In this document: in pieces, positions 2,859-25,037 of the stretch
Numbering within the stretch: position 1 is the stretch's first letter
Layout: each line of letters opens with the position of its first letter
Origin: a virus
Strand: one strand, 5' to 3'
IMG/VR virus record: IMGVR_UViG_3300025035_000001
Length of the DNA: 34,506 nt
The notes under the pieces: generated by a model
What the model was told of the DNA's origin: nothing
The model's input: only the letters and a program-made list of their open reading frames with translations
The model's database searches: none
Translations under genes and position numbers: made by a program

Positions 2859-4909
2859 TGGGATTAATACAATATACCACCATAGTAGATAAAGCTTGTT
2901 GTGGTGGAGTTTCTACCGAATATCAAATACCTATCGGTTCAACTCCTCACGAAATAGCTACTCTTACCGGTATGTCTATTCACAAAGCAATAGAGTTATC
3001 TGAAAGAGCAATTGAAAAAAACAAAGATATTTGTCCTACTCTTTATTTTAATGTTGAGATAACTGATTCTTTGCAGAAAAATAATTGTCAATATGGAGTA
3101 GGCGGTTCTGTATCTGTAACCATACCGGCAAACAAATACAGTTCTCAATTATCACAATTAGAAGCTAACCGTAAAGCACAAGAAGAGTTTGACAATACCG
3201 CTCAATCGATTGCTAATCAGTTAGGTACTTGTACAACATTTTGTAACGATAGTAACTGTCCTTCTGAAATTGTTAAAAGTATTAACGAATGTGGTGAATT
3301 TAGAAGAAAACAACGTTGTTTAAATGGAACTTGTATAGAGTTTGGAGATGTGTTTTTTATCTGTACGGGTAATTGCCGCAGTGAAATCTGTTTAGAACCT
3401 TGCACTACTTGCAGTACACAATGTCCAACAGGAGTATGTATAGAAAATCATACTTGTGTTAACGGTATTTGTGTTCCTAACTGTGAAGGTCAGCCTTGTT
3501 CAAGATTATGTAGAAACGGTTATTGCCCTCAAGGTTCAGACTGTATAAATGGGCAGTGTAGTGATATACCTATTTCGTGTACGGTGTGTAGTACATTATG
3601 TCCTACAGGTTCTTGCCCGAACGGTCAAACTTGTGTAAAAGGAATATGTACACCTAATTGTACAGGTCAACCTTGTTCAAGAACTTGTAGAAATGGTGAA
3701 TGTCCAACATGTTTTAATTGTCAAGAAGGTGAATGTGTAAGACCAAATTGTTCAACAGGACAAGTTTTGAATACAACGACTTGTAAATGTGAACCGATTC
3801 CTTGTGATCCAACATGTACAGAATATAGAAATTTTGACTTAGATACTGAATGTAGAATAGCCTTTACTTCGCAAAGATGTGTTAATAAAACTTGTGTTGA
3901 TGTAGTTACTCGATTTGAAAATAAACTTGACAACACTACTTGTACAGGAGGTATCTGTAATTCAGGAGCTTGTCAAACAGAATGTATACCTGACTGCGTA
4001 CAAAACAAATGGATTCAAGATACTGCAAAAGAATGTCAAGAAAGTCGACAAAAAATAGAATGTGTTAATGCTGTTTGTACACCAACAATTATTGAATTTA
4101 AAAATAAACCGAATGGTACATCTTGTATTGATGGAGAATGTCAAGAAGGTGTTTGTACGCCACCGCCTACCACTTCAACAATTTGTGGAATATATTCAGG
4201 AGGTGCTGCATCATCAGGTTTCGCAACTATAATTGATAGTGTTTTTCCTGCCACTTTTAAGGGCTATATAGTATTTCAATTTAGCACAGTAAGTAAAGGT
4301 AAATTCGAATTATTTAAAGCCACCTCTTATCCTGAGAATGGAGTACCTAACATAAATACATTTTCTATGCCGACATCAGGAAATGGAACGAGTACTTCAA
4401 GTGTAGGTACAATGGTTGCTACAACCGGACAGAAAATATATAACGGTTATGATAATCAAGGTACTTGCATTACTTTAAATAATAATGGAGTAGGTTGTGG
4501 CGGATTTGCTCAAAACAGAGTAGATATAAATACAGGTAAAACAATTTCTCAAAATATTAACACTATTCCTTTCACACCTGCTGGTGAAGGTAATGGGTTT
4601 TCTTTTTTTAGACAAGCGACGGGTAATGTAGATACAAGTGATTCTCGATTTATAGGTGTAGATTTAATATATGACAATCGAATTTTAGAATTACAAAAAG
4701 AAACCGGTATTGTTGGATCATTTTTATCGTCAATACCTTTTAATGTTGGAGGAACTCAACCAGGTAATAGCATTTATGTATCCCTTCAACAATTAGTTTA
4801 CACTAGAACAAACGGTTCAGTATCTAATCCTGAATTATTTATGTTTCGAAGTACAAAAGCAACAGCTTATACCTATAATATTTACTTAGTTCATTGTTTC
4901 CCTGACTGA
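2858..4909 (+). CDS. Cys-rich repeat protein with an N-terminal DUF5977-like domain (putative fibre/adhesin)
   Basis: YFNVEITDSLQKNNC...GGSVSVTIPANKYSSQLSQLEANRKAQEE...QSIANQLGTC resembles DUF5977 from memory. It is followed by about 50 Cys in about 310 aa of tandem repeats and a Gly/Thr-rich C-terminal globular region. Confidence 0.6.
   Translation: MGLIQYTTIVDKACCGGVSTEYQIPIGSTPHEIATLTGMSIHKAIELSERAIEKNKDICPTLYFNVEITDSLQKNNCQYGVGGSVSVTIPANKYSSQLSQLEANRKAQEEFDNTAQSIANQLGTCTTFCNDSNCPSEIVKSINECGEFRRKQRCLNGTCIEFGDVFFICTGNCRSEICLEPCTTCSTQCPTGVCIENHTCVNGICVPNCEGQPCSRLCRNGYCPQGSDCINGQCSDIPISCTVCSTLCPTGSCPNGQTCVKGICTPNCTGQPCSRTCRNGECPTCFNCQEGECVRPNCSTGQVLNTTTCKCEPIPCDPTCTEYRNFDLDTECRIAFTSQRCVNKTCVDVVTRFENKLDNTTCTGGICNSGACQTECIPDCVQNKWIQDTAKECQESRQKIECVNAVCTPTIIEFKNKPNGTSCIDGECQEGVCTPPPTTSTICGIYSGGAASSGFATIIDSVFPATFKGYIVFQFSTVSKGKFELFKATSYPENGVPNINTFSMPTSGNGTSTSSVGTMVATTGQKIYNGYDNQGTCITLNNNGVGCGGFAQNRVDINTGKTISQNINTIPFTPAGEGNGFSFFRQATGNVDTSDSRFIGVDLIYDNRILELQKETGIVGSFLSSIPFNVGGTQPGNSIYVSLQQLVYTRTNGSVSNPELFMFRSTKATAYTYNIYLVHCFPD
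3401..3754 (+). repeat. Tandem 59-codon (177 nt) Cys-rich coding repeat, 2 copies
   Basis: CTTCSTQCPTGVCIENHTCVNGICVPNCEGQPCSRLCRNGYCP (from 3401) vs CTVCSTLCPTGSCPNGQTCVKGICTPNCTGQPCSRTCRNGECP (from 3578). Confidence 0.9.
3803..4160 (+). repeat. Second type of Cys-rich coding repeat, 2 diverged copies of about 60 aa
   Basis: CDPTC...DTECR...RCVNKTC...FENKLDNTTCTGGICNSGAC vs CIPDC...KECQ...ECVNAVC...FKNKPNGTSCIDGECQEGVC. Confidence 0.8.
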
Positions 4910-7140: not shown

Positions 7141-8661
7141 ATGAAATTAGTACAAAAAAACGATATTGCTAGATTTAGCAATCAAGCCTTTTCAGTAGGC
7201 TCTATGATGGAATTAATGGGTCGTCAACCTCATCATATTGCAGGCTACATCAGACACAAAAAACAATATAAACAAGGTCTAATGGCGATTACCGAAGGTT
7301 TAGGTAATGTTTATGTTGAAAATGCCGCAGATATGAAAAAACTAGAGGATATTGATACCTTTAGTTTTACATGGGATGTTGAGACATCACAAATTCCAGT
7401 AATCACCATCACTCGTGATTTAACAGATGATGCGACAAGTGGTAACCCTGTTACTATTTACACAGAATCTAAATATTTTAGTAAATACGACATTTTTGCT
7501 TTAGAGAACACACAACAACTGTATGTACTTACCGAACCCGATAGAGTTGCACCGAACGAATATGCTTACACTTGTAAGCTAATAACTACCCCAAGAACAG
7601 GAACAGCTATTCAATTAGCTTTTGCTACTGAAGGTCGTACAGCTCGTTACCTATATAACGCTCACCCTGAGTGGTCTGAATTTGGTTCTATTAAGCATCA
7701 CTACAACACAGAACGTCATATTAACTGGTTAACTAAAATTCGTTCTGACCAGACTTATTCAAATGACTTTCGTGCTACACAAGATTTGTACTTCATGTCT
7801 GACTCGGATATTAAAAAAGCAGCAGATGTACGTGGAGGGACTTATAAAATCTTTAAATTAGATAGTGTTGAGCAAGGTGTGTTAGACCATTTTATCTTAT
7901 CCGCTAACAATCAACTTTTATTTGGGCGTAGTTTTATGGATGAAAAAACAGGTCGTTCTAACATCCAAGTAAACAATAACCAAGATGTAATTGCTGGTGA
8001 CGGTTTAATTGCTCAATATGAACGATATGCTTATTATATAGATTATAATAAATTATCAGTTCGTGATTTTCAAGATGCTATTGAGCATATCTCTGATAAA
8101 AGAGGTGAGTCACAAGGTAACCATATTACGGTAATTCATAACCGTAAATTTTCTCGTCAAAAAGCAAACGCTTTGCAATCAGCGATTCAGTTCTTCGCTC
8201 CTCAAAACAACGGAACTTGGTTCTTTGGACGTGATGATGAAAAATATGCAGATAACTATGATGGAATGGCGAGATATAGTTCACTCAAAAGAAAAACATA
8301 TCCTAATCCAGTTGCGGTAGGTGCTACTTTTAATACTTATATCTATGAAGGTAACACAATCACATTTGTAGAAGATGCTTCTTTGACTTCACATTATCAA
8401 GATAGAGGTTATGCTATTTTTGTAGATACTGGTATTTATGAAGACGAAAAAGGTCAAGTTCCAGGTATTCACTTAAAAACTTTAAAAGGTAGAGCACTTG
8501 TTAAATCTCACATTACAGGTATTGGTGGAATTGACGGTACTACATCAGGATTAGCTTCTAACGCTGCGGACGGTGGACGTTTTGTAGCTTTAGGATGGAG
8601 AGGACTTTGTGTAAGAAATCCTTACGCAGCGGTTATCTTTGAAGAAAACTTAGAGTATTAA
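7141..8661 (+). CDS. Major capsid protein (crAss-like, HK97 fold)
   Basis: 506 aa. Segments such as FTWDVET, YFSKYDIFALEN, HPEWSEFG...ERHINWLTKIR, QLLFGRS...GDGLIAQYER and GLCVRNPY resemble crAss-family MCPs. It is followed by a strong terminator. Confidence 0.85.
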   Translation: MKLVQKNDIARFSNQAFSVGSMMELMGRQPHHIAGYIRHKKQYKQGLMAITEGLGNVYVENAADMKKLEDIDTFSFTWDVETSQIPVITITRDLTDDATSGNPVTIYTESKYFSKYDIFALENTQQLYVLTEPDRVAPNEYAYTCKLITTPRTGTAIQLAFATEGRTARYLYNAHPEWSEFGSIKHHYNTERHINWLTKIRSDQTYSNDFRATQDLYFMSDSDIKKAADVRGGTYKIFKLDSVEQGVLDHFILSANNQLLFGRSFMDEKTGRSNIQVNNNQDVIAGDGLIAQYERYAYYIDYNKLSVRDFQDAIEHISDKRGESQGNHITVIHNRKFSRQKANALQSAIQFFAPQNNGTWFFGRDDEKYADNYDGMARYSSLKRKTYPNPVAVGATFNTYIYEGNTITFVEDASLTSHYQDRGYAIFVDTGIYEDEKGQVPGIHLKTLKGRALVKSHITGIGGIDGTTSGLASNAADGGRFVALGWRGLCVRNPYAAVIFEENLEY

Positions 8662-11793: not shown

Positions 11794-12480
11794 ATGCAAG
11801 AAGTAATTAGAGGTACATGGACTCTTCCAGGAATCACCTATGCGATTAAAAATAATCTTGAAGCAGGATTAAAAGGAACTGCTAATTTTCCTTTTTCAAT
11901 TGAACAATTAGAAGCCGAAGTGATTGCAGAAAGAAATGCAGTAGTAGAACAGTTGAAACAATCTAATCTTCTTGGTGCAAGTGAATTATTTCAAGAAATA
12001 AACTGTGTTTCTTTAGATTGTGAAGATTTTGGATTATGTTGTGAAACATCCACTAAACAACCAACACTTCATTTTAAAGTACCGGTATTTGTTATACAAA
12101 ACTACACCGGTTTAGCTACTCAAACAAAACCTTTTTATATATATGAAGTAGGTAATACCAATTATTTATATCAGGATTATAAATCAAGTTATACTTCTCG
12201 TAAACCATATGTAGTATATAGATTGTACAATGGTGAAATGCACGGATTTATTTTTAATCCCCCCACACCAAATCTTAAAAAAATATCAGTAAGAGCTATT
12301 TTTGAAAATCCTTTAGCTGTTAATGGTTTTAAATGTTGTAGTTATAATGTTGAAACAGATAGATTTCCTGCTCCTAATTTTGTAATTCAACAGATTATTG
12401 TGAATATCACAAATCGTTGGGCATCATGGTATTATAGATTTCAAGGTCAGAAACCTAATAGTCAAACTCCTCAAGTATAA
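11794..12480 (+). CDS. Tail ring/structural protein
   Basis: SIEQLEAEVIAER...LFQEINCVSLDC...KPYV...IFNPP...ISVRAIFENP resembles crAss ring proteins. Synteny agrees. Confidence 0.6.
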   Translation: MQEVIRGTWTLPGITYAIKNNLEAGLKGTANFPFSIEQLEAEVIAERNAVVEQLKQSNLLGASELFQEINCVSLDCEDFGLCCETSTKQPTLHFKVPVFVIQNYTGLATQTKPFYIYEVGNTNYLYQDYKSSYTSRKPYVVYRLYNGEMHGFIFNPPTPNLKKISVRAIFENPLAVNGFKCCSYNVETDRFPAPNFVIQQIIVNITNRWASWYYRFQGQKPNSQTPQV

Positions 12481-13223
12481 TGAATAGATTAGTTAAAAAT
12501 AGAAAAGATTACTTATTGTCAGAAGGTATGGGTAGATATGAAGCAGATGCTTCAGAAGTTACTATTCACGATAATAATTCAGTATACAATTACAAACCTT
12601 TCTTTACGGGTCTTGCTTTGATTAATACTTTAATCGGTAAGACACCTAACGAAGATGATTTTATAGAAGTAGGTGTAAACGCTTTAGAAAAAATAGGTAA
12701 TGTCCACACAGCTTATTATGGATTTATAGGAAGGACTGATAAAAAAGGAGAACTTTGTTTACCTACAGTTGCACAATCTATTGAATATGTATCAAACGGA
12801 CGTGAAGATTTTACTTCTTGGAGTAATGCTACAGATGTTAATCAGCTATATGCACCAGGTGGATACGTAGCGTATAAATTTTTAGGTGATAAAATTAAAA
12901 CTAATTACTTTGAGCAAACTCTTTCAGTACTTTATAAAACAACTCGTCTTGATGAAAAAGGCTTACCTGCGGTGACCCCTAGAGAAGCAGAAGCAATGGC
13001 ATATTGGTGGAATTATACTGATATTACAAGACGTTATTGGAGAGGTGAACAATTAGCAGAATCTCGAATGATGGAAGCTTTACGTTTAGCTAATATTAGA
13101 ATTAATCAAGCTAGAATACCTGAAAAATACTCTCAAAACTTTATTAATATGTTACATGATATTGTTTACAGTAGAGATGGAAAAATATATAATAAATCGT
13201 TAAAAATGATTAAAGGAGCATGA
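12480..13223 (+). CDS. Tail tubular/ring protein (P22 gp4-like position)
   Basis: DDFIEVGVNALEKIGN...LCLP...VLYKTTRLDEKGLP...EAEAMAYW...INQARIP...SRDGKIYNKSLK resembles the crAss tail tubular protein. It lies upstream of the muzzle gene. Confidence 0.65.
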   Translation: MNRLVKNRKDYLLSEGMGRYEADASEVTIHDNNSVYNYKPFFTGLALINTLIGKTPNEDDFIEVGVNALEKIGNVHTAYYGFIGRTDKKGELCLPTVAQSIEYVSNGREDFTSWSNATDVNQLYAPGGYVAYKFLGDKIKTNYFEQTLSVLYKTTRLDEKGLPAVTPREAEAMAYWWNYTDITRRYWRGEQLAESRMMEALRLANIRINQARIPEKYSQNFINMLHDIVYSRDGKIYNKSLKMIKGA

Positions 13224-13654
13224 GTCGTTTTCAAAAACCTAAATCGGCTATAGCAATAGGTGATATAGCCTTAACTATTGATTTTGAGTTTATTAAAACA
13301 CATAGAAGAGTGATGAAAGCAAAAGATAAGCGCAATATTGCGGTTAAAGTCTTTACTCGTTTTTATGAAATGATGATAACTGATGTGATTGAGAATAATG
13401 TTGAATTTCAAGCACCTACACGTAAATTGATGTTATTTTATGTAGCTGAAGATTTACCTGCTAGGACTAAACGATTGAATTATCACGAACCTGCTATTTT
13501 TGAGAAAAAATTTAAACAACATGTAGTATGGATGACCTATTACGCAAATAAAAATATTCGACATCGTTTTGTTTCAGTAAATAAGACACTGTATAAAAGA
13601 CTTGCAGAATTAGGTGTAACACATAAATATTTAGAAAAAAGAAGATATGCTTAA
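13220..13654 (+). CDS. Basic protein, putative divergent IHF/HU-like DNA-binding protein
   Basis: K/R-rich. A helix (VKVFTRFYEMMITDVIENN) is followed by beta strands (VEFQAP). crAss-like phages carry IHF-like genes at this location. Confidence 0.45.
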   Translation: MSRFQKPKSAIAIGDIALTIDFEFIKTHRRVMKAKDKRNIAVKVFTRFYEMMITDVIENNVEFQAPTRKLMLFYVAEDLPARTKRLNYHEPAIFEKKFKQHVVWMTYYANKNIRHRFVSVNKTLYKRLAELGVTHKYLEKRRYA

Positions 13655-13934
13655 AAAGAAAAGAACTATTGATTACAAGCAACAACTGCTTGAAGAATTT
13701 TATCCAATGACGTGGAAAGAAATATCTAAGTCATTACAGCTTATTTGGAAAGGGGTTTCTTCTAAAGTAGATGAAGGATTTTTAGTACAGGTAAGGCGTT
13801 CTAAAGGAGGAGGTTTTCATTCTATTATTGGTTTTGCAAAGAATCGAGAAAAAATAGAAGAAATACAAAAACAGCAATCAGAATATATTAAAGGTATGCG
13901 TGAAGCGTATCATTCTATGAATAAATACAGATAA
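13647..13934 (+). CDS. Small basic protein, putative IHF/HU-like
   Basis: 95 aa with a helix-helix-beta pattern (QLLEEFYPMTWKEISKSLQLIWKGV...GFLVQV). Synteny agrees. Confidence 0.4.
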   Translation: MLKKKRTIDYKQQLLEEFYPMTWKEISKSLQLIWKGVSSKVDEGFLVQVRRSKGGGFHSIIGFAKNREKIEEIQKQQSEYIKGMREAYHSMNKYR

Positions 13935-13937
13935 TAT

Positions 13938-16900
13938 ATGAGCGGTACAACCAATAGTTTTGAAGGAGGTTTACATTTAGATTATCCTGATTATCAAACA
14001 CCTAAAAATGTATATACTTTTGCCAACAATGCTACTTTTTTAACACATGAAGGGAATGAATTAATTTTGCAAAATGAAAAAGGTACAGTATATCAAAGTA
14101 GTCTTAAAGAAGATTACATAGCGGTTGCAGTAGCCGATTATACAGGTATTGCTTATATTATATCAGCACAAGTAATTAATAATGAATTTACAGGAAGAGG
14201 TGAAATAGGTACATTTCCAAGTCCTGATTATGCTAATAAAGTAGATGTTGATTGCACAGCTCAAGGGTGTAATTATGAAACAACGCTTATTCCTGAATAC
14301 CAAGCTTTTCAAAATTACAGTGGTGATAACGGTAATCCGATTAATTCTTTAATTGAAGTGGGTTATGGAGAATTTACTTCTGATTTGTTTAATTTTCAAA
14401 AAGATAAACCTGTTGAAATAGTCGCAACACAAACAAGTTATGATGGATCGGTAAATATCATTTTTACAGATAATTTTAATAAACCTAAACTTATAAACAG
14501 TCGATTTACAGTAAGACCTAATAATAAAGTTACTATTGTAAATAGAGCTGGTTCTAACGATACTAATTTATACGCTGTAGATAATTTTAATAATACACTT
14601 AATCACATCTTTAGTTCAAATAAATTAGCTACGGTTACCTTTGATGGTCAATCTACAGGTGGTGATTTAGCTACTGGACAATATCGTTATTTCTTTCAAT
14701 ATCTTACCGTAGACGGTAACGTAACTAATGTATTTGCTGAATCTTTCAACATTCCAGTATTTTTTGGTAATTCGGTTGCTACCACTCGTGGAGGATTACC
14801 AAATGAAAACACAGACAAAAGTAACAAATTAACGATTCATAATATTGACCAAGCTTATTCAAGTATTAGAGTATATTTTCAATATTCCGCAGGAACAGTA
14901 GGTGCGGATGCACAACAAACCGTTTATAAAATAGAGGAAGAATATGACATAAAAGGAACAGAAGTCACAATTACCCATAGTGGTTTTGAAACAATTACCG
15001 CAGTAGAAAACGCAGAACTTTCTTTAGATTTTTCTTTAATCAACACTTATAGAACAGGTTGTGAAATAAAAAGTAGATTAGCGGTTGGAAATATTAAACT
15101 TCGTCAGTACGATGTAAACATATTATTTGATTTCGCTAAAAAGATTAAAGTATTTGAAACCGAAAAGAAAATGACAATTCCTGGTTTTGATACGGATAAA
15201 AATCATTCTAACATTTATTCAAATATTGCTTATGATGCTGTTCAACGAGACACTTTTGTTGGGGGTTACTATAACCCTCGCAACGTACACGATAATCTTG
15301 GCTATTGGGGTGGTGAAACCTATATGTTTGGAGTCACATTTATATTCGAAGATGGAGCGTATTCTCCTGTTATTCCTATTCGGGGTATCGACAATTTTAA
15401 CAATAACGCTGTTTATAACGATGCTAACCTTTTTATAGATGATGATTTTGATAAGACTACAGGTGAAAACATAAGAGGTGTTTATCGCTTTTCTCGAAGA
15501 ACCAAAAAAAATTATATTGTTACTTCAGCTTCTTCTTATGTTAATGTTTTATTAGCTGAATTTGAAATACCTCAATTACCACAAACTATTTTAGATTTAG
15601 GGGTTGTGGGTTATCGTTTTCATAGAAGTAGACGTAAGTTAGACTGTATAGGTCAAGGGGTATTAATTAATACTGTAATCATACCTACCGATGATGGCTT
15701 TGATTTTAGAGAACCTAAAGTTAATCCTAATTCTTCATTAGCCACTTATTACAAAGCAGGTTTTGATGAACCTATTGAAGGGTATACTGAAAACAATTCA
15801 AGATATATTCCAAGTTTTAACTATTTACTTGAAACCATTTCAAGAAAGAATAAAAGAGATAAAGACGATTCGACAGGACCGCATTCACCCTCTGTGGACA
15901 ATCAAGGTATAGAACCTGTTCAAATGTATGCGGGTGGGTACAATGGAGCAATTGAAAAATTTTGGTTTAATAAGAAGTTCGCCTTCCTTAGTCCCGACTT
16001 TATAGGTAATCCTGTTAATAACTCAAGACTTTTTAGTACTGATAGTTTTAGTTTTGAAAAACTAGGTGAATTTTATTCTATTTACGCTGTTCCGACGACT
16101 GTTCCTTTTAAAGTAGAAACCACTACCAAAGCACCTTGGGCAGAAAGAGATGTTAATCATTTAAGATATTTTTCTTTAATTAAACCAACCTCTTTTTTAC
16201 AAACACCTCTTAGTCCTTTTATTAAATGCAGTGCGGAATATGTAACAGGAGAGGTTACTTCTACTACTTCTCAAGGTTTTTCTTCAGCTACGGATATTTA
16301 CGCTAAGTTTAGGTATCAATTAGGTGAAGGTATTGTATTTGACGGAAAAACAAATTCTGCGGACACGGTTGATTATGGGTTGTTAAATTATATCTTTAAT
16401 GATTATGTTGGAATAACTACTGAAAACCCTTTTATTATTAATCCTAATTATCCGACTACGCTTCCTGTAAGCTCTACTTTTGTTTCTATTAATCAAACCA
16501 CTTACGATTTAGGAGCTACTACAGGAGCAGGTACTAAAGTAGATGGAGGTAGAGTAAATACTTTTAATTTCACTAACAATGTTACTACAGGAGATTACGC
16601 TTCCGTTTTAATTAATGTTTATAGAGGTTCAGGACCTAGAAATTTAGAACAACTTTCAGTACTTTATCAACCTGAAGGTGAAGCGTTTTTTCCGATTACT
16701 CAACCGTTATATGAAACAAACGCTCTTGCGAACGCTGTACAAGCTTCAGGAGTCAATGGAATCCTTCAAACGAAGCAAAACCTATCTAACAGTAAAGGTC
16801 GCTTAGAAGCCGCTAATGGTGATTGTTTTATTAATCTCACACATAGACGATTATTTTATTCGGGTCTGGATAGAAATGACCCGGGAATAGAAGTAGGTGT

Positions 16901-18470
16901 TACAGGAACAAATGTAGGTTACACAATAGCTTTCATTGCTGAATCTAATTACAATGTTGCAGGGCGTTACGAAAACTTTGCCAATGTTGCAGAACAAGCT
17001 AGAACATTTTACCCTTTTGAAGCTAGAAATCATAAAATAGCGGTTTCCACCTCTTCAGTTAAAGGAGAAGATGATAAATGGAGAATTGCTAGATCACTTG
17101 AAACAAAGCAATACAATACCGGATATGATAGCTTTGAAGGGGGTCGTAACTACGTAGCTATTTCTTCAAGATTACCTTTTATACAAAATCAATTTAACAC
17201 AAGAGTTTGGATTTCAGAGCCTTACACTTCGGCAAGTTTTGAAAATCAATACAGATTCTTTTTACCTTTAGCTTATAAAGATTACTCTCAAGAGTTTGGT
17301 GAAATCGTAAGTCTTAAATCACAAGGCGATGTGATTATAATGATTCAAGAATTTGGTATAACCGTTATTCCTGTTTCTCAAAGAATTGCACAGCAAGGAG
17401 ATAGTGCTGGAGCAGTATTTTTTGCTTCTTCAGATGTATTAGCTTCTGTAGATAATTCAATGGTCATTTCTACGTTACATGGCTCTCAGTGGCAGTTTTC
17501 AATAGTGTCTACTGATAACTATACTTACGGTGTTGATTTAAACACGAGTAAGATATGGCGTACTAGAGGACAAAGTCTTGAGTTAATATCAGATGTAAAA
17601 ATTCAAAGTTTCTTGCGTAAAATTCGTAAACAATATGACAATCAAGAATATGAATGGTTTTTTAGACAAGTTCGTACCTACTACGACAAACGTAGAGGTG
17701 ATGTTATTTTCACATTTGCCGCTACCGCTGAAGGGGATGTTTGCGGTACTTCTATCATTACTATACCTTCACAGTGTATTAACATTAATGGAGATGAAAA
17801 CGGTATTATTCTTTCAGGAGGTGTACCTTTAAATACCGTAGAAGTACCTAATCTTTGTTATAATGATTCTATTTTCAATCTTGTGTATAATGAACAAATG
17901 AATCATTGGAAAACATTTAACAGTTGGTATCCTTCTAATATGTTTAGTATTTATGATGAAATATATAGTTTACCGCTTCTTGAAAAAAGAAATAAAATAT
18001 ATAAGCATTATGAAAACGATAAATACGCTTTTTATTACGACGAACAACATGATTTCATTGTTGAAATAAATGTAACATCGGATACAAAAATGCATCAAAC
18101 CTTTAATAACTTATTTCTTGTAACTAATGAGTTTTATCCTTATAAAATAGAATACACGACCAGTACTGGAACGGTTATTCAAGATATAAAACCTAGAAAC
18201 GTAGAGGGAAGAGGTGCTGAACCTTATCGGCAACAAGAATTAAACCCCATAGCCGTTTCTGATTTCGTATATAAAGAAGACCATTTATATGGTGAAATAA
18301 GACCGAATGATTGGAATCGACGAGAATATGTAGATAAATATGGTAACACCACATCTCTTCCTGAAAGAAGAGTAAGAGATAAATTTTGTAAAATTAGATT
18401 TTATTATAATACGAGCAATAATGTTTATATTCAACAGATTATAACTAACGTTAATCGAAGCTATAGTTGA
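13938..18470 (+). CDS. Muzzle / tail stabilisation protein (P22 gp10-like, crAss-type)
   Basis: 1510 aa. N-terminal NSFEGGLHLD...YTFANNATFLTHEGNELILQNEKG, then YDGSVNIIFTD...PKLINSRF, GYWGGETYMFGV, YKDYSQEFGEI and C-terminal RVRDKFCKIRFYY resemble the crAss stabilisation protein. Confidence 0.8.
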   Translation: MSGTTNSFEGGLHLDYPDYQTPKNVYTFANNATFLTHEGNELILQNEKGTVYQSSLKEDYIAVAVADYTGIAYIISAQVINNEFTGRGEIGTFPSPDYANKVDVDCTAQGCNYETTLIPEYQAFQNYSGDNGNPINSLIEVGYGEFTSDLFNFQKDKPVEIVATQTSYDGSVNIIFTDNFNKPKLINSRFTVRPNNKVTIVNRAGSNDTNLYAVDNFNNTLNHIFSSNKLATVTFDGQSTGGDLATGQYRYFFQYLTVDGNVTNVFAESFNIPVFFGNSVATTRGGLPNENTDKSNKLTIHNIDQAYSSIRVYFQYSAGTVGADAQQTVYKIEEEYDIKGTEVTITHSGFETITAVENAELSLDFSLINTYRTGCEIKSRLAVGNIKLRQYDVNILFDFAKKIKVFETEKKMTIPGFDTDKNHSNIYSNIAYDAVQRDTFVGGYYNPRNVHDNLGYWGGETYMFGVTFIFEDGAYSPVIPIRGIDNFNNNAVYNDANLFIDDDFDKTTGENIRGVYRFSRRTKKNYIVTSASSYVNVLLAEFEIPQLPQTILDLGVVGYRFHRSRRKLDCIGQGVLINTVIIPTDDGFDFREPKVNPNSSLATYYKAGFDEPIEGYTENNSRYIPSFNYLLETISRKNKRDKDDSTGPHSPSVDNQGIEPVQMYAGGYNGAIEKFWFNKKFAFLSPDFIGNPVNNSRLFSTDSFSFEKLGEFYSIYAVPTTVPFKVETTTKAPWAERDVNHLRYFSLIKPTSFLQTPLSPFIKCSAEYVTGEVTSTTSQGFSSATDIYAKFRYQLGEGIVFDGKTNSADTVDYGLLNYIFNDYVGITTENPFIINPNYPTTLPVSSTFVSINQTTYDLGATTGAGTKVDGGRVNTFNFTNNVTTGDYASVLINVYRGSGPRNLEQLSVLYQPEGEAFFPITQPLYETNALANAVQASGVNGILQTKQNLSNSKGRLEAANGDCFINLTHRRLFYSGLDRNDPGIEVGVTGTNVGYTIAFIAESNYNVAGRYENFANVAEQARTFYPFEARNHKIAVSTSSVKGEDDKWRIARSLETKQYNTGYDSFEGGRNYVAISSRLPFIQNQFNTRVWISEPYTSASFENQYRFFLPLAYKDYSQEFGEIVSLKSQGDVIIMIQEFGITVIPVSQRIAQQGDSAGAVFFASSDVLASVDNSMVISTLHGSQWQFSIVSTDNYTYGVDLNTSKIWRTRGQSLELISDVKIQSFLRKIRKQYDNQEYEWFFRQVRTYYDKRRGDVIFTFAATAEGDVCGTSIITIPSQCININGDENGIILSGGVPLNTVEVPNLCYNDSIFNLVYNEQMNHWKTFNSWYPSNMFSIYDEIYSLPLLEKRNKIYKHYENDKYAFYYDEQHDFIVEINVTSDTKMHQTFNNLFLVTNEFYPYKIEYTTSTGTVIQDIKPRNVEGRGAEPYRQQELNPIAVSDFVYKEDHLYGEIRPNDWNRREYVDKYGNTTSLPERRVRDKFCKIRFYYNTSNNVYIQQIITNVNRSYS

Positions 18471-18471
18471 T

Positions 18472-19248
18472 ATGTATAAAAAATATAAAAAAAGCAGAGC
18501 TAAATTCATTAAACGTTCTCCCGGTGGTTCTATGGGTGGTTCTGATGCTATATCTGCGGGTTTAAGTTTTCTTGGTGATATGATTCCTGAATCGGATGTT
18601 TTAGAAAAAACAGGTAAAAGTTCAGCGATTAGTGATACCGTTAATGCCGCAGCGGTTCAAGGTTTAAATACGATTTTACCCGGTTCAGGTACGGCTTTGA
18701 ATATGTTAACAAAGACCACAGGTAATCTTAGAAAAACAAATTGTGTACCTGACCCTTCTTCACCAACAGGTGAAAAATGTTTTGAAGATGAAAAAGGAGC
18801 AGGGGAGGTAGTCGCAAACATTTTTGACCCTGGTAAGACCGCAGGAGATATGGTAGATGGTTTTACAACACTTTTTAAAGACCCTAAACAAGGAGCTAAA
18901 AAACTAGTCGATACTTTTACTTTTGGAATAACAAATTTTGATAAGTCCGAGGAAGATGCGTATGCGGAAGCTTTAAAAGAAGATAATCAAAGGAAAAAAA
19001 ACGAAAGATTTTCTAAAGTAAATACTCAAGCAAATAAAGACAAAATACTAGGGCAACAGTTAGGTGCTGCTCAGTTTCAAAGAAACACTCAAACGTATGC
19101 TAAGAAAGGAGGTTCTTTATTTAATCGATTAAAAAAAGGTGGAACGGTTAAAGACCGTTGTTATTATAAATGTAAAGCATCGTATAAAGTGTTTCCTTCT
19201 GCGTATGCTTCAGGTTGTATTGCAAAATGTAGAAAAAATAAATCATAA
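18472..19248 (+). CDS. Putative cargo/ejection protein fused to a small C-terminal basic 'PSAYAS' module
   Basis: Follows the muzzle gene. It has Gly/Ala-rich amphipathic segments. The C-terminal KDRCYYKCKASYKVFPSAYASGCIAKCRK resembles a small module common in aquatic phages and is separated from the rest by two KKGG motifs. Confidence 0.55.
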   Translation: MYKKYKKSRAKFIKRSPGGSMGGSDAISAGLSFLGDMIPESDVLEKTGKSSAISDTVNAAAVQGLNTILPGSGTALNMLTKTTGNLRKTNCVPDPSSPTGEKCFEDEKGAGEVVANIFDPGKTAGDMVDGFTTLFKDPKQGAKKLVDTFTFGITNFDKSEEDAYAEALKEDNQRKKNERFSKVNTQANKDKILGQQLGAAQFQRNTQTYAKKGGSLFNRLKKGGTVKDRCYYKCKASYKVFPSAYASGCIAKCRKNKS

Positions 19249-20486
19249 TGGTTAGAAAAACAGAAAAAGGTCTAGCTTTAAAACGTTGGTTTAAAGAAAA
19301 TTGGAAAGATGAGAAAGGTAATCCTTGTGGTTCTGATAAAAATAAAGATATTAAGAAATGTAGACCTACTAAGAAAGTTTCTAAAGACACGCCTGAAACT
19401 TGGAGTTCCATAAATAAACGAGGTGTGAAAGATGAAATAGTTAAACAAAAGAAAAACACAGGTATGGGAAATAGAACAGACTCAAGTAAAAATATTAAAA
19501 ATAAACAAGGTGGTAAAATGAATAAATCATTACAAGACCTATATCTTCCTAAACGTAAATTACAAAATAGTGGTATAATACAACCTGTAATTTCTCCAGC
19601 TTTACGTAAAGCAATGGAAGAATCTAAAACTAAATCCAAAGTTGCTGGACATAAACTTCCAATATATGAAGAACATTTAAATAGTCCTAATTATAAAGCA
19701 GCTACTAAAAACGCTAAAGAAATACAACAAGGTATTGAAAAAGGTGAAGTAGAAGCTATTCAACAAAAAGATGGAACATACCGATATGTAAGTACAGGTA
19801 AAGCAATTCCCGACGATACTCACGAAATGATTGCTACTTTAGGTGTTGGTGCAGTGGGTAAATTAGCAGCTAAAGAGGCAGGGAAAAAAATCATACCTCG
19901 TTTGGTAGATGCTGGAAAAGAAGGTTTAGAAGCATTAAGTAAACATTATGCTCCTAGAGATTTTGGACAAGGAGTAGCGTTAGGTGCAGATGTTATTAAC
20001 GATGCAACTAAAGGAAAATTTGATTTAGAAAAAGCTGTAATGTCAGCATTACGTATGGCACAAGCAGGTGTACCTGTATCAGGAGCTTTTGATAATAAAA
20101 TCGCTCAAGGTTTAGCGGATGCTACTTTAGGAAACAATAATCCTATTATTAAATTACTTTTACAATTACCTCCTAAATCTTTAGAAAAACTACCTGCTAT
20201 TAATCGATTTCTAAGAGGTAGTGGTATCACAAGTCAAATGAGTGGAGAAGGACAAGGTTCAAGATTAGATAGACCGATAAAAGAATTTGACCCATACACT
20301 CCAAAAAGAAAGTCTGATTCAAATAAATCTTTTATAGAAAAAATGCGTGAAAGTGCTGCGGAGCTACAAGAAAGCTTTAAAACAAATAGGGAAAACGCTA
20401 GAAAACGTTTAAATCTTAAAAAAAATGGTGGAACAATTATTCGTCAAAGATTAAGGCAACCTTTAAAAAATATTTATGAAATTTGA
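19248..20486 (+). CDS. Basic multi-module protein: N-terminal DUF5872-like 'LKRWFKENW' module plus an Ala/Gly-rich helical region (putative internal virion protein)
   Basis: GLALKRWFKENWKDEKGNPCG...KCRPTKKVSKDTPETW. KQGG lies at the module boundary and KNGG near the C-terminus. Confidence 0.55.
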   Translation: MVRKTEKGLALKRWFKENWKDEKGNPCGSDKNKDIKKCRPTKKVSKDTPETWSSINKRGVKDEIVKQKKNTGMGNRTDSSKNIKNKQGGKMNKSLQDLYLPKRKLQNSGIIQPVISPALRKAMEESKTKSKVAGHKLPIYEEHLNSPNYKAATKNAKEIQQGIEKGEVEAIQQKDGTYRYVSTGKAIPDDTHEMIATLGVGAVGKLAAKEAGKKIIPRLVDAGKEGLEALSKHYAPRDFGQGVALGADVINDATKGKFDLEKAVMSALRMAQAGVPVSGAFDNKIAQGLADATLGNNNPIIKLLLQLPPKSLEKLPAINRFLRGSGITSQMSGEGQGSRLDRPIKEFDPYTPKRKSDSNKSFIEKMRESAAELQESFKTNRENARKRLNLKKNGGTIIRQRLRQPLKNIYEI

Positions 20487-21252
20487 AAAGTTTGATATTG
20501 AAGGAACAATGATTCCTTTTTTCGGTATTTCTGATTCGTCTATGGAAGTCAAATTTAATAGAGTGGCTAGAATCGCTTCTCGATTTAATATTTGGAAAGA
20601 ACAGATGCAAAACTACGTATTACAGAATAACTCATCACCTACTTCTCAAGAATATAATCTTTCTGTTGCTTTTTTAATCATTATGTCGACAGGAATTAGA
20701 GTAGGTAATGAGAGTTCCGCAGAAGGTTTTTATTCAGACTATAAAGAAAAAGGTAAAACGGTTTTCGCACATACGTATGGTTTAACAACTCTCTTACCTG
20801 AACACGTTAGTGTTAAAAACGAAATCGTGTATTTTAATTTTACAGGAAAGAAACACGTTCAAAATACTTTTGAGTTAAGTTCTGATTTAAGTAAATTAGT
20901 AATTCCGGTTATTGAAAGTGGTTATTCGACTGTATTTAATATGGAAGAACCAGAACTAACTCGATTTGTGAAGCAACATACTTCTAAACATTTAAGTACG
21001 AAAGACTTTAGAACCTTTAGAGCTAATGTGTATGCTTTTGAATTTGGAAGCACCCAACCTAAATATATGTCTAAATCTGAAAGAAAAGATAGAATTAAAG
21101 ATACTGTTGAAAAAGTATCCCAACAATTAAACAATACTCCCGGTGTGGTTAAATCTTCTTATGTAGATAAACGATTGTTAGATTATCTTTTTCCTGAAGA
21201 GTTAATACCAAAAAAGAAACATGGGGGATTACTTAAACTTTATAAATTATGA
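20476..21252 (+). CDS. Type IB DNA topoisomerase, catalytic domain only (bacterial/poxvirus-like)
   Basis: Catalytic pentad present: R75 (GIRVGN), K125 (FTGKK), R179 (KDFRT), N220 (LNNTP) and Y229 (SYVD), plus the YGLTTL motif. The N-Y spacing of 9 equals vaccinia H265-Y274. Confidence 0.9.
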   Translation: MKFEKFDIEGTMIPFFGISDSSMEVKFNRVARIASRFNIWKEQMQNYVLQNNSSPTSQEYNLSVAFLIIMSTGIRVGNESSAEGFYSDYKEKGKTVFAHTYGLTTLLPEHVSVKNEIVYFNFTGKKHVQNTFELSSDLSKLVIPVIESGYSTVFNMEEPELTRFVKQHTSKHLSTKDFRTFRANVYAFEFGSTQPKYMSKSERKDRIKDTVEKVSQQLNNTPGVVKSSYVDKRLLDYLFPEELIPKKKHGGLLKLYKL

Positions 21253-21539
21253 TGTCATTATTGGAATTATACGGTTTAAATCAACTTAAAAAAGGTGGAA
21301 CAGTTGATAAAAAATCAATACCTTGTAACAAACCTAAACGTTTAGTAGGACACCCGACAAAAAAATTTATTGTAAAAGGTTGCGAGAATGGAAACGAGTC
21401 TATAGTTAGATTTGGTGACGCAAATATGAAGATAAAAAAAAATAATCCTAGAAGAAGAAAGTCATTTAGAGCTAGACACAATTGCAGTAATCCGGGTTCT
21501 AAATTAAAAGCTCGTTATTGGTCTTGCAAAAACTGGTAA
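21249..21539 (+). CDS. Small very basic protein of the 'VRFGD...RRKSFRARHNC...ARYWSC' family (putative DNA-binding internal head protein)
   Basis: This motif is widespread in aquatic phages, from memory. N-terminal LKKGGTV. Confidence 0.65.
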   Translation: MMSLLELYGLNQLKKGGTVDKKSIPCNKPKRLVGHPTKKFIVKGCENGNESIVRFGDANMKIKKNNPRRRKSFRARHNCSNPGSKLKARYWSCKNW

Positions 21540-21615
21540 TTATTTTATTTTAAATTAACCAAAAGGTCTTATATTTATAAGAAGTTTTATTTCATATCTT
21601 TTTAAACATAACATT

Positions 21616-21879
21616 ATGATTGCAAGAGCTATAGTAATAACTAATTATGATGAAATCGTTAATGCTGATAAAGAAGCACAACGTTTAGGATTAGACAAAA
21701 TGGGAATAAAACCCATTGAAGAAATCAGTGAAATCGGTTTTAATCTTGCAGATGTTTCAAGGTATTTAGCAATTCCTGCTACTGGCAAAATTGTAGTAGT
21801 ATTTAAAGATAGAACAGAAGAAGAATTTGAATTAGATGAACAGTTGTTAACATTACTTAGAAGTAAATTTAAAATATGA
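21616..21879 (+). CDS. Hypothetical protein
   Basis: 87 aa ORF with an AT-rich leader. ATGA overlap with the next gene. Confidence 0.65.
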   Translation: MIARAIVITNYDEIVNADKEAQRLGLDKMGIKPIEEISEIGFNLADVSRYLAIPATGKIVVVFKDRTEEEFELDEQLLTLLRSKFKI

Positions 21880-22919
21880 AACTATACGCAAAATATTTAA
21901 AACGACAAGACGGTGGAGATACCAAACCTGCTACTGTTTATGATACGTTTCCTAAAAAAATTAAAAAAGCTCTTGAAAAATCAGATAATATAAGTAAAAG
22001 TGTTACTGATATTCCTAATGGTTTTAGAACCACAGTATCTACGGCTAGTGGTAAACCTGGAAAAATTCATGAGCAAAGTATTGACCCAAACTCTTTAAAA
22101 GGTTCAGGTAAATACATAGGTGGTTGTACTACTGAGATAATGCGACCCTTAATACAAGCTTCTAAATCAATAGAATTACAAAATAAATTAGTTGCTCAAG
22201 GTATTGCTAAAATTGAAGACTATGGGAGTAGAAAGGTTATTACAAGTGTAAAGAATCCTAATTGTAAAATACCTTTAGAAAAATTTCAAGAACCCGGTTC
22301 AAGAGAAAGTGCTTTATTTACCCAAGAAATGAAGTTCGCAGGTAAAAAAGATATTGAAATGCCTATAGATATACCTAAAGGTAAATTAAGAAGAATACCT
22401 ATGCCTAAAGGAGAAGATAAGATACCAATACCGCAAGGTGAGTCAATGGAAAAAGAGGTTAACATTAATGTTTGGTTTAATCTAAAAGTACCGCACATGA
22501 CTAAAGGTGTTAAAGATTTAGGTAAAAGACAAGTACCGGTTACATTCTTAGTTCAGGTAGATAGAAAAGCAAATGATTTTAATAATTTGACAAAAAAAGA
22601 TGTGAGAATAAAAGTGGCATCAGTAGGAGCGATTGAAGCAGTAGGTACTAATAATGCTGCCGCTGCTTATCAAAGTGGTGGAGCATCAATAGATGTTGGT
22701 GATTTTCCCCTTGGTACTGGTGCAGTTACCGAAGCTGAAATAAGAAGTAAAATGAACATTATAGGACCTTTTATATTAGCTAAAATAAACGACGGAACGA
22801 TTAAAGCACGTGTTGGAAACGTAAAAGGGAACATTCCTTCTTTTCAAGATAGATTAAACCAAATAAGAAACTCTCGTAAAAGAGGTGGGACATTATTAAC
22901 CAAATATTTAAGTCGATGA
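21876..22919 (+). CDS. Hypothetical basic protein with xxGG motifs at both termini (putative cargo)
   Basis: 347 aa. KRQDGGD at the N-terminus, RKRGGTLL at the C-terminus, and an internal short Pro-rich repeat (IDIPKG/IPMPKG/IPIPQG). Confidence 0.6.
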   Translation: MKLYAKYLKRQDGGDTKPATVYDTFPKKIKKALEKSDNISKSVTDIPNGFRTTVSTASGKPGKIHEQSIDPNSLKGSGKYIGGCTTEIMRPLIQASKSIELQNKLVAQGIAKIEDYGSRKVITSVKNPNCKIPLEKFQEPGSRESALFTQEMKFAGKKDIEMPIDIPKGKLRRIPMPKGEDKIPIPQGESMEKEVNINVWFNLKVPHMTKGVKDLGKRQVPVTFLVQVDRKANDFNNLTKKDVRIKVASVGAIEAVGTNNAAAAYQSGGASIDVGDFPLGTGAVTEAEIRSKMNIIGPFILAKINDGTIKARVGNVKGNIPSFQDRLNQIRNSRKRGGTLLTKYLSR

Positions 22920-23311
22920 ACATATATGGATTTTCAGCACAAAGGAATAGAAATACCTCAAAAGGAAGAACTTTAAAAGACGGTGGTATTATTGCTGGAG
23001 GTGTAGCACACGCTGAAAATAATAATATTGGCGATAAAGGTATTCCTGTGGTATCGATTGAATCTTATAACACCAACAATGGAAAATATATTAAGTCTGA
23101 TAAACAAGTAGAAGTAGAATCTGAAGAGATTGTTTTCAATGAGGAAACGTCTTTGAAGATTAATAAGTTAGTAGAAGAATATAATACGTGTAAATGCGAA
23201 GGTAAATTAAGATTATTAGGTCAAGTTATACTTGAAGCTACTCGTAATCTTGTCGATGAAACATGTAGAACCAGTTGCAAATTTGAATCTAAATTACAAA
23301 AAATAAAATGA
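22916..23311 (+). CDS. Conserved crAss-like virion/cargo-associated protein ('KGIPVV...EVESEEIVF' family)
   Basis: GVAHAENNNIGDKGIPVV...QVEVESEEIVF...LLGQVILE. N-terminal LKDGGII. Confidence 0.55.
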   Translation: MNIYGFSAQRNRNTSKGRTLKDGGIIAGGVAHAENNNIGDKGIPVVSIESYNTNNGKYIKSDKQVEVESEEIVFNEETSLKINKLVEEYNTCKCEGKLRLLGQVILEATRNLVDETCRTSCKFESKLQKIK

Positions 23312-24183
23312 ACAATTTAAGAATTAAAAACCTTCATAAACGCTTGTTAAAAGCGGGTGGTAAAATCGTAAAAGAAGATAGCTATTTATTTAAAAATAAA
23401 AGAGCTGACGGTGGTGAGGTTAAAACACCTCCAAGAAAGGCATTATACGCTTTAGCTAACAAATTAGCGGACCAAAAAGTAGCTAGAAATGGCGGTACAC
23501 GAAATGATTATTTTATGGAAGCGATTAAGCACATTAAGGCTAATCCTGAAAGGTATCGAGAAGAACTGAGTAAATATGTTGATGAAACACCTATTTCAGT
23601 AAATAATGATATAGAAGATCCTGAAATTGTTTCAGGTATGACTCGTGGTGATTATTTAAACGCTGACGACAACACCCGAAAAAACATGGAGGAGTATGTT
23701 AACTATGGGCAGTATGGTGAAAACAATCAAGGTGCTGTAGATAAGAAAATAAATATTAAAAAACGTCAGATAATTACTGCGGCTTATAATAGAGCTATTC
23801 GAGAAGCTACTATCGCTAATAATAATAAACCGTTAAGTACTAAACAAATGCAAGAGATTTATAAAAAATTAATGGAAAGTCAAGCTGTACCTTCTTTTAA
23901 TATGGGAGGTATTATGGGTGCTGTAGGAAACGTTATGCAGAATCCTAATACGATGAATATGATGGGAGATATGATGTCTCAACAAGCGGAACGTAGAAAT
24001 CAAGCGGTAATGGCTTTAGGTGGGCAATTACGAATGAGGAGATTAGGTGGTTCTATCATTGGAGAAACAATGTTTAAAATCGCTGATAAAAATGCGGATT
24101 GGATTTATAATAATATGCAAGATTTAATCGGTGACGCGGTTTATAAAAACAATTTAGAAAGATTGTCAAGATTATCTCTGTAA
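23308..24183 (+). CDS. Hypothetical protein with multiple xxGG motifs and a Met-rich segment (putative cargo polyprotein)
   Basis: Contains LKAGGKI, RADGGEV, ARNGGT, FNMGGIM, MALGGQL and RRLGGSI. Confidence 0.6.
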   Translation: MNNLRIKNLHKRLLKAGGKIVKEDSYLFKNKRADGGEVKTPPRKALYALANKLADQKVARNGGTRNDYFMEAIKHIKANPERYREELSKYVDETPISVNNDIEDPEIVSGMTRGDYLNADDNTRKNMEEYVNYGQYGENNQGAVDKKINIKKRQIITAAYNRAIREATIANNNKPLSTKQMQEIYKKLMESQAVPSFNMGGIMGAVGNVMQNPNTMNMMGDMMSQQAERRNQAVMALGGQLRMRRLGGSIIGETMFKIADKNADWIYNNMQDLIGDAVYKNNLERLSRLSL

Positions 24184-24184
24184 T

Positions 24185-24679
24185 ATGTTTTACATTGGCG
24201 ATTCTGAAATACAAGGAAAAGGTGTTTTTATAGACCAAGATGTACCAAAAGGAATATGTCTTGGTCTTGCTCACACTTTAGAAGGTAATAAATTAACTCG
24301 TATTACTAAATTGGGTAAATTTCATAATCATTCAGTTTTTCCTAATTGTAAATCATTTAAAATAGGCAATAACCGTTATTTATTTAGTCTTAGAGATTTA
24401 GTAAAAGGGGAAGAAATAACCGTTGATTATAGAAAACAACCCGAATTAGAACAACCTAAAGAAAATTGGGATATGGCAAGATTATTATTACTCGACCATA
24501 ACGGTCAACCTCAAATGAAACTTGGAGGTAGAGAAATTGTATTTTCAAGAGTTTCAACAAAAAAGATTTTAGATTTAGCTGAAAAAGCAAGTGATGGAGA
24601 TAATCGAGATATTTTAGCTTTAGGTAAGTTCGTTTATCAAGAAAGAATGAAACAAAAGAAAAGAGACAAAGAAATTTAA
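24185..24679 (+). CDS. Minimal SET-domain protein-lysine methyltransferase fused to a C-terminal 'EIVF' helical domain
   Basis: SET motifs: SEIQGKGVF (GxG), FHNHSVFPNC (NHS) and RDLVKGEEITVDY. No pre- or post-SET Cys clusters. Confidence 0.85.
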   Translation: MFYIGDSEIQGKGVFIDQDVPKGICLGLAHTLEGNKLTRITKLGKFHNHSVFPNCKSFKIGNNRYLFSLRDLVKGEEITVDYRKQPELEQPKENWDMARLLLLDHNGQPQMKLGGREIVFSRVSTKKILDLAEKASDGDNRDILALGKFVYQERMKQKKRDKEI

Positions 24680-24725
24680 TTTTTTGTATATTTAATTTAT
24701 ACAGTCACCTATAAAAACAACGATA

Positions 24726-25037
24726 ATGATTACGTTTAATAATAGAAACACAAATAAAGTTGTAATCCCAGCTAGAGTGCTAGGATTACGTCAAGAAGGA
24801 GGGGAGTTGATAGAATCAGGAGAACCTGCGGCTGCGGAAGCTCAAGACCCTATGATGGACATCTTAAATATGGCAATGCAAGCAGTGGAAGAGCAAGATC
24901 CTGAAACGGCTATGCAAGTTTGCGTAATGCTAGTAGAAATAGCAGGTGGAGGTGAAGAAGCTTCTATGGAAGAAGAATCAATGGAAGAAATGCCTACAGA
25001 TGAAGAAATGGGTTACGGTGGAATGATGGATTACTAG
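24726..25037 (+). CDS. Small acidic Met-rich protein (crAss-like conserved 'QDP...AMQVC' family), flanked by xxGG motifs
   Basis: RQEGGEL...QDPMMDILNMAMQAVEEQDPETAMQVC...MGYGGMM. Confidence 0.6.
   Translation: MITFNNRNTNKVVIPARVLGLRQEGGELIESGEPAAAEAQDPMMDILNMAMQAVEEQDPETAMQVCVMLVEIAGGGEEASMEEESMEEMPTDEEMGYGGMMDY

Follow-up and report, generated by a model that had tools for sequence, protein, structure and literature searches.

The chlorovirus protein vSET has been called the smallest histone methyltransferase. It is the A612L product of PBCV-1 (PDB 1N3J and 3KMA), a chain of 119 amino acid residues that forms a dimer, has no Zn-binding pre-SET or post-SET module and targets Lys27 of histone H3 in its eukaryotic host. 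Among cellular SET proteins, RomA/LegAS4 of Legionella, NUE and cpnSET of Chlamydia and Go1-SET of Methanosarcina methylate chromatin or nucleoid proteins. PBCV-1 carries the viral enzyme in its virion and employs it on the host as infection begins (PMC7019647).

A different kind of packaged protein is described for the phage crAss001. Its muzzle protein gp44 is followed by the cargo proteins gp45 (C1) and gp46 (C2), which were found in virions by mass spectrometry, are stored in the capsid and the tail and are thought to be ejected first (Bayfield et al. 2023, PMC10172136). The gene presented here is of interest in relation to both systems. It is located in a virus DNA stretch of 34,506 nucleotides (IMG/VR record IMGVR_UViG_3300025035_000001), which is called the window below.

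Structure of the SET domain

The gene at 24185-24679 (+ strand) is found in the open reading frame list and by its Pfam SET match. It codes for a protein of 164 residues consisting of two modules, an N-terminal SET core and a C-terminal module designated EIVF. An identical copy of this protein is present on 48 public contigs, the longest of which has 118,917 bp. The match to the Pfam SET family PF00856 covers residues 36-82 with 32.6 bits (E 1.1e-7), the curated cut-off being 22.4 bits; two PHROGs of unknown function are matched as well. The core, residues 1-96 (24185-24472, +), was delimited by conservation, by the AlphaFold2 model and by structure matches. All three of its characteristic motifs can be read in the sequence on the + strand: Gly11-Lys-Gly13 (GKG, 24215-24223); Asn48-His49-Ser50 (24326-24334), followed by Pro53 and Asn54 as NHSxxPN; and EEITVDY (24410-24430), which runs from Glu76 to the catalytic Tyr82. 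The C-terminal flank QPELEQP..W95 (24437-24469, +) is specific to the family, as seen from its conservation. Since the 164-residue chain contains just two Cys residues, Cys25 and Cys55, the Zn-binding pre-SET and post-SET clusters are absent. The initial annotation, made from the sequence alone, had named a minimal SET domain with GxG, NHS and ExxxDY motifs and no Zn-binding modules, and it was right in each of these points.

Eight residues, Gly13, Gly27, Gly44, Asn48, His49, Glu77, Thr79 and Tyr82, are kept in at least 90% of the rows in an alignment of 46 short homologues, and they show no or almost no variation in 65 large homologues. In the large homologues the residues S, G, N, H, P, E, T and Y and the following sequence Q-P-x-L-E-Q-P are invariant, and Glu77, Thr79 and Tyr82 are invariant also in a further set of 11 homologues. 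Because the SAM-binding and catalytic residues are invariant in the homologues, an enzyme is expected here rather than a silent domain.

The AlphaFold2 model, for which the alignment of 46 homologues served as input, has pLDDT values of 94-98 over residues 1-90. Foldseek gives a probability of 1.0 for its similarity to MLL1, vSET, PFL0690c and S. pombe Set7. Over the SET structures compared by VIA-align, Z ranges from 11 to 13 and the rmsd from 1.5 to 2.3; the values are Z 13.0 and rmsd 2.1 with 92 aligned residues for EZH2, Z 11.8 for MLL1, and Z 11.3 and rmsd 1.8 with 81 aligned residues and 25% identity for vSET (3kma). In a comparison of the family profile with the PDB, MLL1 (5e-12) and vSET (1e-11) are matched. 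Residues 1-82 of the model span residues 5-105 of the vSET chain and residues 1-99 span 133 residues of MLL1, so that the core is shorter than vSET by about 19 residues and shorter than MLL1 by about 35. The missing residues map to the SET-I region, between the two segments of the profile. The SET-I insert is almost completely deleted, and the C-terminal flank QPELEQPxxW is acidic.

The product of 24185-24679 is a true and complete SET domain of unusually small size. It is predicted to be an active protein lysine methyltransferase that depends on SAM and belongs to a mini-SET family with a core of about 82-96 residues. The vSET-like architecture proposed earlier is borne out by the structural comparison: both are minimal viral SET proteins of the same fold without Zn-binding pre-SET and post-SET modules, the phage core being the smaller. 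The proteins differ in that the phage mini-SET has its own C-terminal flank, QPELEQPxxW/F, and is usually one module of a multidomain protein, and the inferred bacterial host would have no histone H3 that could be the substrate.

Genomic context

Every gene of the window is on the + strand, and the G+C content is about 32%. For most of the proteins no PHROG or Pfam family is matched. Two exceptions are the Crassvirus tail ring protein 2 (11794-12480, +; PF25702, E 1.3e-10) and the Crassvirus muzzle protein of 1510 residues (13938-18470, +; PF25731 crAss_MUZ, E 1.2e-45). The presence of both identifies the window as the virion module of a crAss-like phage, and a marine one. The nearest records of the muzzle protein, with about 30% identity, are from two gut crAss-like genomes, and weak matches to Flavobacterium phages are also found (23% identity, E 6e-6). 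Upstream in the virion module a Cys-rich protein of 683 residues (2858-4909) contains a DUF5977 domain (E 2.8e-18).

On its 3' side the muzzle gene adjoins a block of ten genes (18472-25037, +), which overlap or are closely packed. The SET gene lies inside this block and is co-oriented with the muzzle gene; a promoter and terminator scan at the SET gene gave nothing above shuffled background. The block also codes for a basic protein of 412 residues with an N-terminal DUF5872 domain (19248-20486, +; PF19197, E 2.9e-11) and for a type IB topoisomerase (20476-21252, +; PF01028, E 1.1e-17), which had been recognized correctly in the initial annotation. The latter ends with KKKHGG/LLKLYKL, where the slash marks the boundary after GG. 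A basic Cys/Trp protein of 96 residues (21249-21539, +; phrog_7595, weak DUF5754 match) has the N-terminal tag LNQLKKGG/T. An acidic protein of 103 residues with an LRQEGG tag (24726-25037, +) is 44% identical (BLASTP E 5e-7) to a protein of 106 residues in MT835470 and is syntenic with it. Poxviruses package a type IB topoisomerase in the virion, and the topoisomerase of the putative cargo block resembles this case.

The position of the block matches that of gp45-gp46 in crAss001, whose genes are likewise directly 3' of the muzzle gene, and for this reason the block is proposed as cargo. Sequence similarity between the two phages is not detectable in this region: the block proteins have no significant similarity to gp45 or gp46 in BLASTP, nor has the EIVF profile to gp45 in hhalign. 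A SET domain was found neither in crAss001 nor in MT835470. Moreover, the putative cargo of the window is divided among about ten small genes, in contrast to the cargo of crAss001.

Exchange of modules beside the muzzle gene

Among IMG/VR genomes, a giant protein headed by a SET domain is encoded directly 3' of the muzzle gene in G002, G006, G008 and G010, and directly 5' of it in G009. The protein of G002 (locus L014) has the SET domain at its start, followed by EQPDDFKKGG/SVPKLPKKK with the boundary again after GG. At another locus (L006) a different head takes the place of this SET domain, while the remainder of the protein is 82% identical, and both heads end at xKKGG. The SET-less counterpart of the L014 protein has a head of the form ITMQGV...MYPGGEYTF and continues with ELKKGG/TPKSLVKMPKPSKK. 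A SET domain is present in one of 18 distinct relatives of the L014 protein and is absent altogether from three of five related genomes.

Similar exchange is seen in front of the EIVF module. Two proteins that are 62-63% identical to the 164-residue protein, P0002 and P0003, consist of the SET domain and the EIVF module. In P0167 the EIVF module is 68% identical, and the head is GYKxNSPFK...ITM...MYPEKEY instead of SET. In MT835470 the gene carries DUF192 in front of the EIVF module, and the homologue of the acidic 103-residue protein comes next. The replacement of SET by other heads before the EIVF module suggests that SET is the payload and the module a small conserved carrier for it.

The alternative head has about 95 residues with the pattern GY[KR]xNSPFK ... 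ITMxGV ... MYPxxEYxF and belongs to no Pfam family. It replaces SET at the N-terminus of cargo polyproteins (L006, 9740-10099; L014, 10004-10300), and it precedes the EIVF module in P0167 and P0022. P0167 is located on a contig of 9257 bp, and a homologue of the product of ORF 22916, with 66% identity, is likewise on a contig of 9257 bp.

The C-terminal EIVF module

The EIVF module, residues 97-164 (24473-24676, +), is composed of a short β-segment (LLLLDHNGQPQMKLGGREIVF) and a helical hairpin. Its helices, residues 122-135 and 140-160, are modelled with pLDDT 85-93, while residues 91-120, which include the β-part, are of low confidence (pLDDT 59-65). The module occurs alone in proteins of 71 residues (P0042 and P0136), behind other heads (P0022, P0167 and P0168), and behind DUF192 at the syntenic place in the gut crAss-like genome MT835470 (E 5e-6 for the module and 1.2e-27 for DUF192). 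We conjecture that it is an adaptor or docking module for incorporation into the virion. Searches by hhalign, Foldseek, VIA-align and ESM Atlas did not connect it with any known docking domain by structure or by profile, and in ESM Atlas no score for the module was 0.9 or higher.

The pattern D-x-x-G-x-P ... G-x-E-[IV]-V ... F-S, seen by eye, had led to the idea that the EIVF module corresponds to the portal-bound domain of crAss001 gp45. This idea is not supported, as BLASTP is not significant and hhalign of the EIVF profile against gp45 residues 421-560 gives a probability of 0.25%. A separate observation concerns P0014, a SET protein of 98 residues, and P0042, each found on one ENA contig of 799 bp. 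The contig is possibly shared; if so, it would come from a relative in which SET and the EIVF module are split into adjacent genes.

A second protein of the block is of interest in this connection. The gene at 22916-23311 (+) codes for 131 residues with an N-terminal TLKDGG tag, as delimited in the family alignment. Members of its family share the invariant block GGIIAGGVxH..N..GD.GIP, the segment EVESEEIVF and four invariant Cys residues (CxC ... CxxxC), which possibly form a small metal site. Comparison with the EIVF profile gives hhalign E 1.2e-3 and a probability of 19%, and BLASTP has no significant match; these values are only suggestive, and the protein possibly carries a second copy of an EIVF-type module. 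Its model is poor (pLDDT 58.5), and Foldseek and VIA-align give no meaningful match to it, the best Z being 5.0.

The Gly-Gly motif

Peptides of the form xxGG are found near the ends of the products in nine of the ten genes of the block. The block has 17 sites of the basic-GG type in 2147 residues, compared with six in the other 8963 residues of the window (Fisher p=2e-8); shuffling each protein of the block gave 5.4 ± 2.2 sites, with a maximum of 14 in 2000 shuffles. The K/R-x-GG peptides noticed earlier in the neighbouring proteins are therefore real and above chance. Lys occupies position -2 in 10 of the 24 GG sites of the window. A larger sample is provided by the SET-bearing giant proteins. 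There position -3 is Tyr in 23%, Phe in 12% and Met in 7% of the sites (background 4.9% for Tyr and 3.5% for Phe); position -2 is Gln in 26%, Lys in 16% and Ala in 12% (background 4.7% for Gln); and position -1 is Lys, Asp, Glu or Asn, with Lys in 17%. The core of the motif is two Gly residues with a hydrophobic or aromatic residue at -3, and Lys is not conserved. The likeness to GKGG of the histone H4 tail, which had been pointed out earlier, is superficial.

In the cargo-type polyproteins the motif is located where domains or genes meet, and it occurs on both sides of SET. GG adjoins the SET core in 79 of 106 large homologues (75%), compared with 34% of random windows. It is equally frequent in 17 SET-less polyproteins, with Lys in 20% of the sites at -1 and 25% at -2. 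Cargo reading frames of MT835470 begin with RKYQTGG, IQKLQGG and RFMQQGG, and gp45 of crAss001 (MH675552; L002, 11988-14516) has about ten [FY]xxGG sites. As SET-less polyproteins, gp45 and MT835470 all carry the motif, it does not depend on SET. The initial annotation had suggested examining whether SET and xxGG-tagged blocks occur together across phages. They do so in the large homologues, and the motif is just as common in the SET-less relatives.

It is important to compare the motif with the structure of gp45, in which residues 214-245 are resolved in the tail barrel and residues 425-552 on the portal; the publication does not discuss the xxGG motif or any processing of gp45 (PMC10172136). 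The [FY]xxGG sites bracket exactly both segments resolved by cryo-EM. Motifs of one kind delimit the modules both in gp45 and in the block of the window. The site A425-F-G-G is probably uncut, because the published model starts there. If gp45 were cut at some of its xxGG sites, the two segments would not have to be bridged through the portal channel. The motif may serve for processing, for docking or as a hinge. A role of xxGG as a protease site found no support: Pfam gives no peptidase domain in about 80 SET-bearing proteins, and no Peptidase_C48 (Ulp-like) domain was found in five complete or nearly complete relatives. The sequence MKLGG of the SET protein itself was considered as a conserved tag and rejected; it lies within the EIVF module, and the homologues have HG, YG, TG or NG at this site (KLHG, KLYG, LTG, LNGG). 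Taken over these phages, the arrangement suggests that a short Gly-Gly motif separates the exchangeable modules of which Crassvirales cargo is built.

Distribution of the mini-SET family

Clustered at 50% identity, the family comprises 884 representatives at E<=1e-3 in an exhaustive HMMER search, of which 244 remain at E<=1e-10. The median length of the best 146 homologues is 483 residues. Among the best homologues, 136 have recognizable motifs, and 106 of these are longer than 200 residues; in proteins of up to 2377 residues the SET core is located at the extreme N-terminus or close to the C-terminus. The other 30 of the 136, about a fifth, are small, stand-alone and untagged, and belong to other phage types, in which they may not be packaged. 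Stand-alone mini-SETs are found, for example, in the Pelagibacter phage Kolga and in the T4-like cyanophages P-RSM6 and P-SSM7, and the reading frame in P-RSM6 adjoins baseplate genes.

The partner domains identified by Pfam in 80 SET proteins include Phage_lysozyme2 (six), YkuD (four), SLT (three) and ART-PolyVal (two), together with glucosaminidase, a transglycosylase, DUF5872, DUF5754, DUF192 and DUF6267. These partners are typical of ejected or polyvalent phage proteins. Examples are P0063 (SET+YkuD+ART-PolyVal) and P0015 (lysozyme+SET). A protein of 1510 residues (L048) carries SET, DUF5872 and DUF5754 in one chain, whereas in the window these three are encoded by separate genes.

Two further architectures were noted. 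Low-GC aquatic phages (L034-L060, L066 and others) have proteins of 650-750 residues with SET at about 480-540, followed by a conserved DGYRTYSPFKDLxYI, which is the motif of the alternative head module; in the two loci of this class that were searched, L040 and L050, no muzzle gene was found. A class of 770-1100 residues has Y[KQ]RGG immediately before SET and DUF6267 at the C-terminus.

The polyvalent proteins (Iyer et al. 2017, PMC5512222) offer a useful comparison. The SET homologues of 600-2400 residues are likewise multi-effector chains, and they too are encoded among late or virion genes. They differ in that no MPTase or other peptidase domain was found in about 80 SET-bearing proteins, and the SET protein of the window has two modules only. 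No mention of SET was found in that survey (PMC5512222).

In cells the family is almost absent. When the genomes of 185,579 prokaryotic species, one per species, were scanned with the family patterns, a single match was obtained, on a MAG contig of 4.4 kb. The same patterns give 115 loci in IMG/VR, including phages of 200 kb and one giant-virus MAG; a scan of IMG/VR with the window's own SET protein had no match, and it was the family alignment that gave these loci. The mini-SET family thus appears to be virus-restricted, and in this it differs from RomA/LegAS4, NUE, cpnSET and Go1-SET, which are cellular, larger and delivered by secretion. The giant-virus locus (L113, GVMAG-S-ERX556045-90, GC 25%) has a mini-SET at 8001-8294 with the flank QPDLEQPxxW. 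The closest predicted viral structures in BFVD include SET proteins of 100-128 residues from Catovirus and Marseillevirus. Phages and giant viruses seem to have the family in common.

Possible function

We propose, with a probability of roughly 0.55, that the SET domain is a cargo payload, that is, a packaged and ejected methyltransferase joined to a conserved C-terminal adaptor. Packaging is suggested by the position of the gene and by the company that the SET domain keeps. The mini-SET would be one of several interchangeable payload modules in cargo proteins encoded beside the muzzle gene, and in this phage the cargo set would be distributed over numerous small genes with coupled translation. 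The EIVF module would probably bring the SET payload into the virion. SAM is a cytoplasmic cofactor, so the protein would have to refold after ejection; it could then draw on the SAM of the host and methylate lysines of host proteins at an early stage of infection. Candidate targets are proteins of the nucleoid, of transcription, of translation or of defence. If SET travels as cargo, the analogy with vSET, which PBCV-1 carries in its virion, would extend from structure to function.

The explanation put forward in the initial annotation was that of a chromatin-like writer, in which SET methylates Lys of the KxGG tags on the co-packaged topoisomerase and basic mini-domains and so regulates condensation and decondensation of the phage DNA. 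Several observations would agree with it: SET and xxGG occur together in the window and in three quarters of the large homologues, Lys is frequent at -2 in the window, the acidic C-terminal flank of SET would suit basic substrates, and the basic DUF5872 and DUF5754 modules are found in the same polypeptides as SET. We nevertheless consider it improbable. The motif does not conserve Lys, and its Lys residues show no link to SET, which means that the tags are no mark dependent on SET; the motif marks domain and gene boundaries and flanks SET itself; the 17 SET-less polyproteins have it just as often and with as much Lys, and it occurs in gp45 and MT835470 too; and close relatives keep the tags when SET is exchanged for unrelated modules. 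In addition, the IHF-like genes that were part of the proposal could not be confirmed, as Pfam has no IHF/HU match for 13220-13934. An injected effector is a more likely role for the SET protein than the writing of a phage chromatin code. Action on a host protein after injection, mentioned earlier as a fallback, is the best fit to the crAss-like cargo context.

It is somewhat unlikely that SET is a late accessory enzyme which stays unpackaged and acts during assembly on host or phage proteins, for example by protecting lysines of virion proteins or by tuning host machinery. Its location in a late, structural operon, where no promoter or terminator signal of its own rises above background, and the stand-alone mini-SETs of unrelated phages such as Kolga, P-RSM6 and P-SSM7 speak for this. 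However, the family is mostly fused to proteins of the ejected type, such as peptidoglycan hydrolases and ART-PolyVal, and in crAss-like genomes SET heads the giant protein beside the muzzle gene; where the fusion partner has to travel in the virion, SET is carried along. A catalytically dead SET domain, serving as a structural or binding module of the cargo such as a plug or a binder of lysine peptides, is very improbable. The near loss of SET-I, the usual shaper of the substrate groove, would be in accord with such a role, but GxG, NHS and Tyr82 are invariant over hundreds of diverged homologues, as would be expected for an enzyme.

Packaging of SET as cargo can be placed in a broader scheme, which is put forward tentatively and may well prove too general. 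The mini-SETs would be lysine methyltransferase warheads, injected by crAss-like and other aquatic phages along with the cargo and exchanged as cassettes at [FYML]xxGG boundaries, within a general and so far undescribed grammar of Crassvirales cargo that includes gp45.

Implications

The first seconds of an infection are decided by the proteins that a phage injects. ADP-ribosyltransferases, RNA polymerases and anti-restriction proteins are known to be injected; in the literature searched, no description of a protein lysine methyltransferase injected by a phage was found. If this broader scheme is true, the mini-SET would be the phage counterpart of chlorovirus vSET and of the bacterial SET nucleomodulins, and host nucleoid, transcription or defence proteins would be rewired within seconds of infection. 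With a core smaller than that of vSET, it is an attractive minimal SET scaffold for structural work and enzymology, and it is a possible probe of lysine methylation in bacteria attacked by phages. The Gly-Gly module grammar would aid the annotation of many unassigned giant proteins in the abundant Crassvirales.
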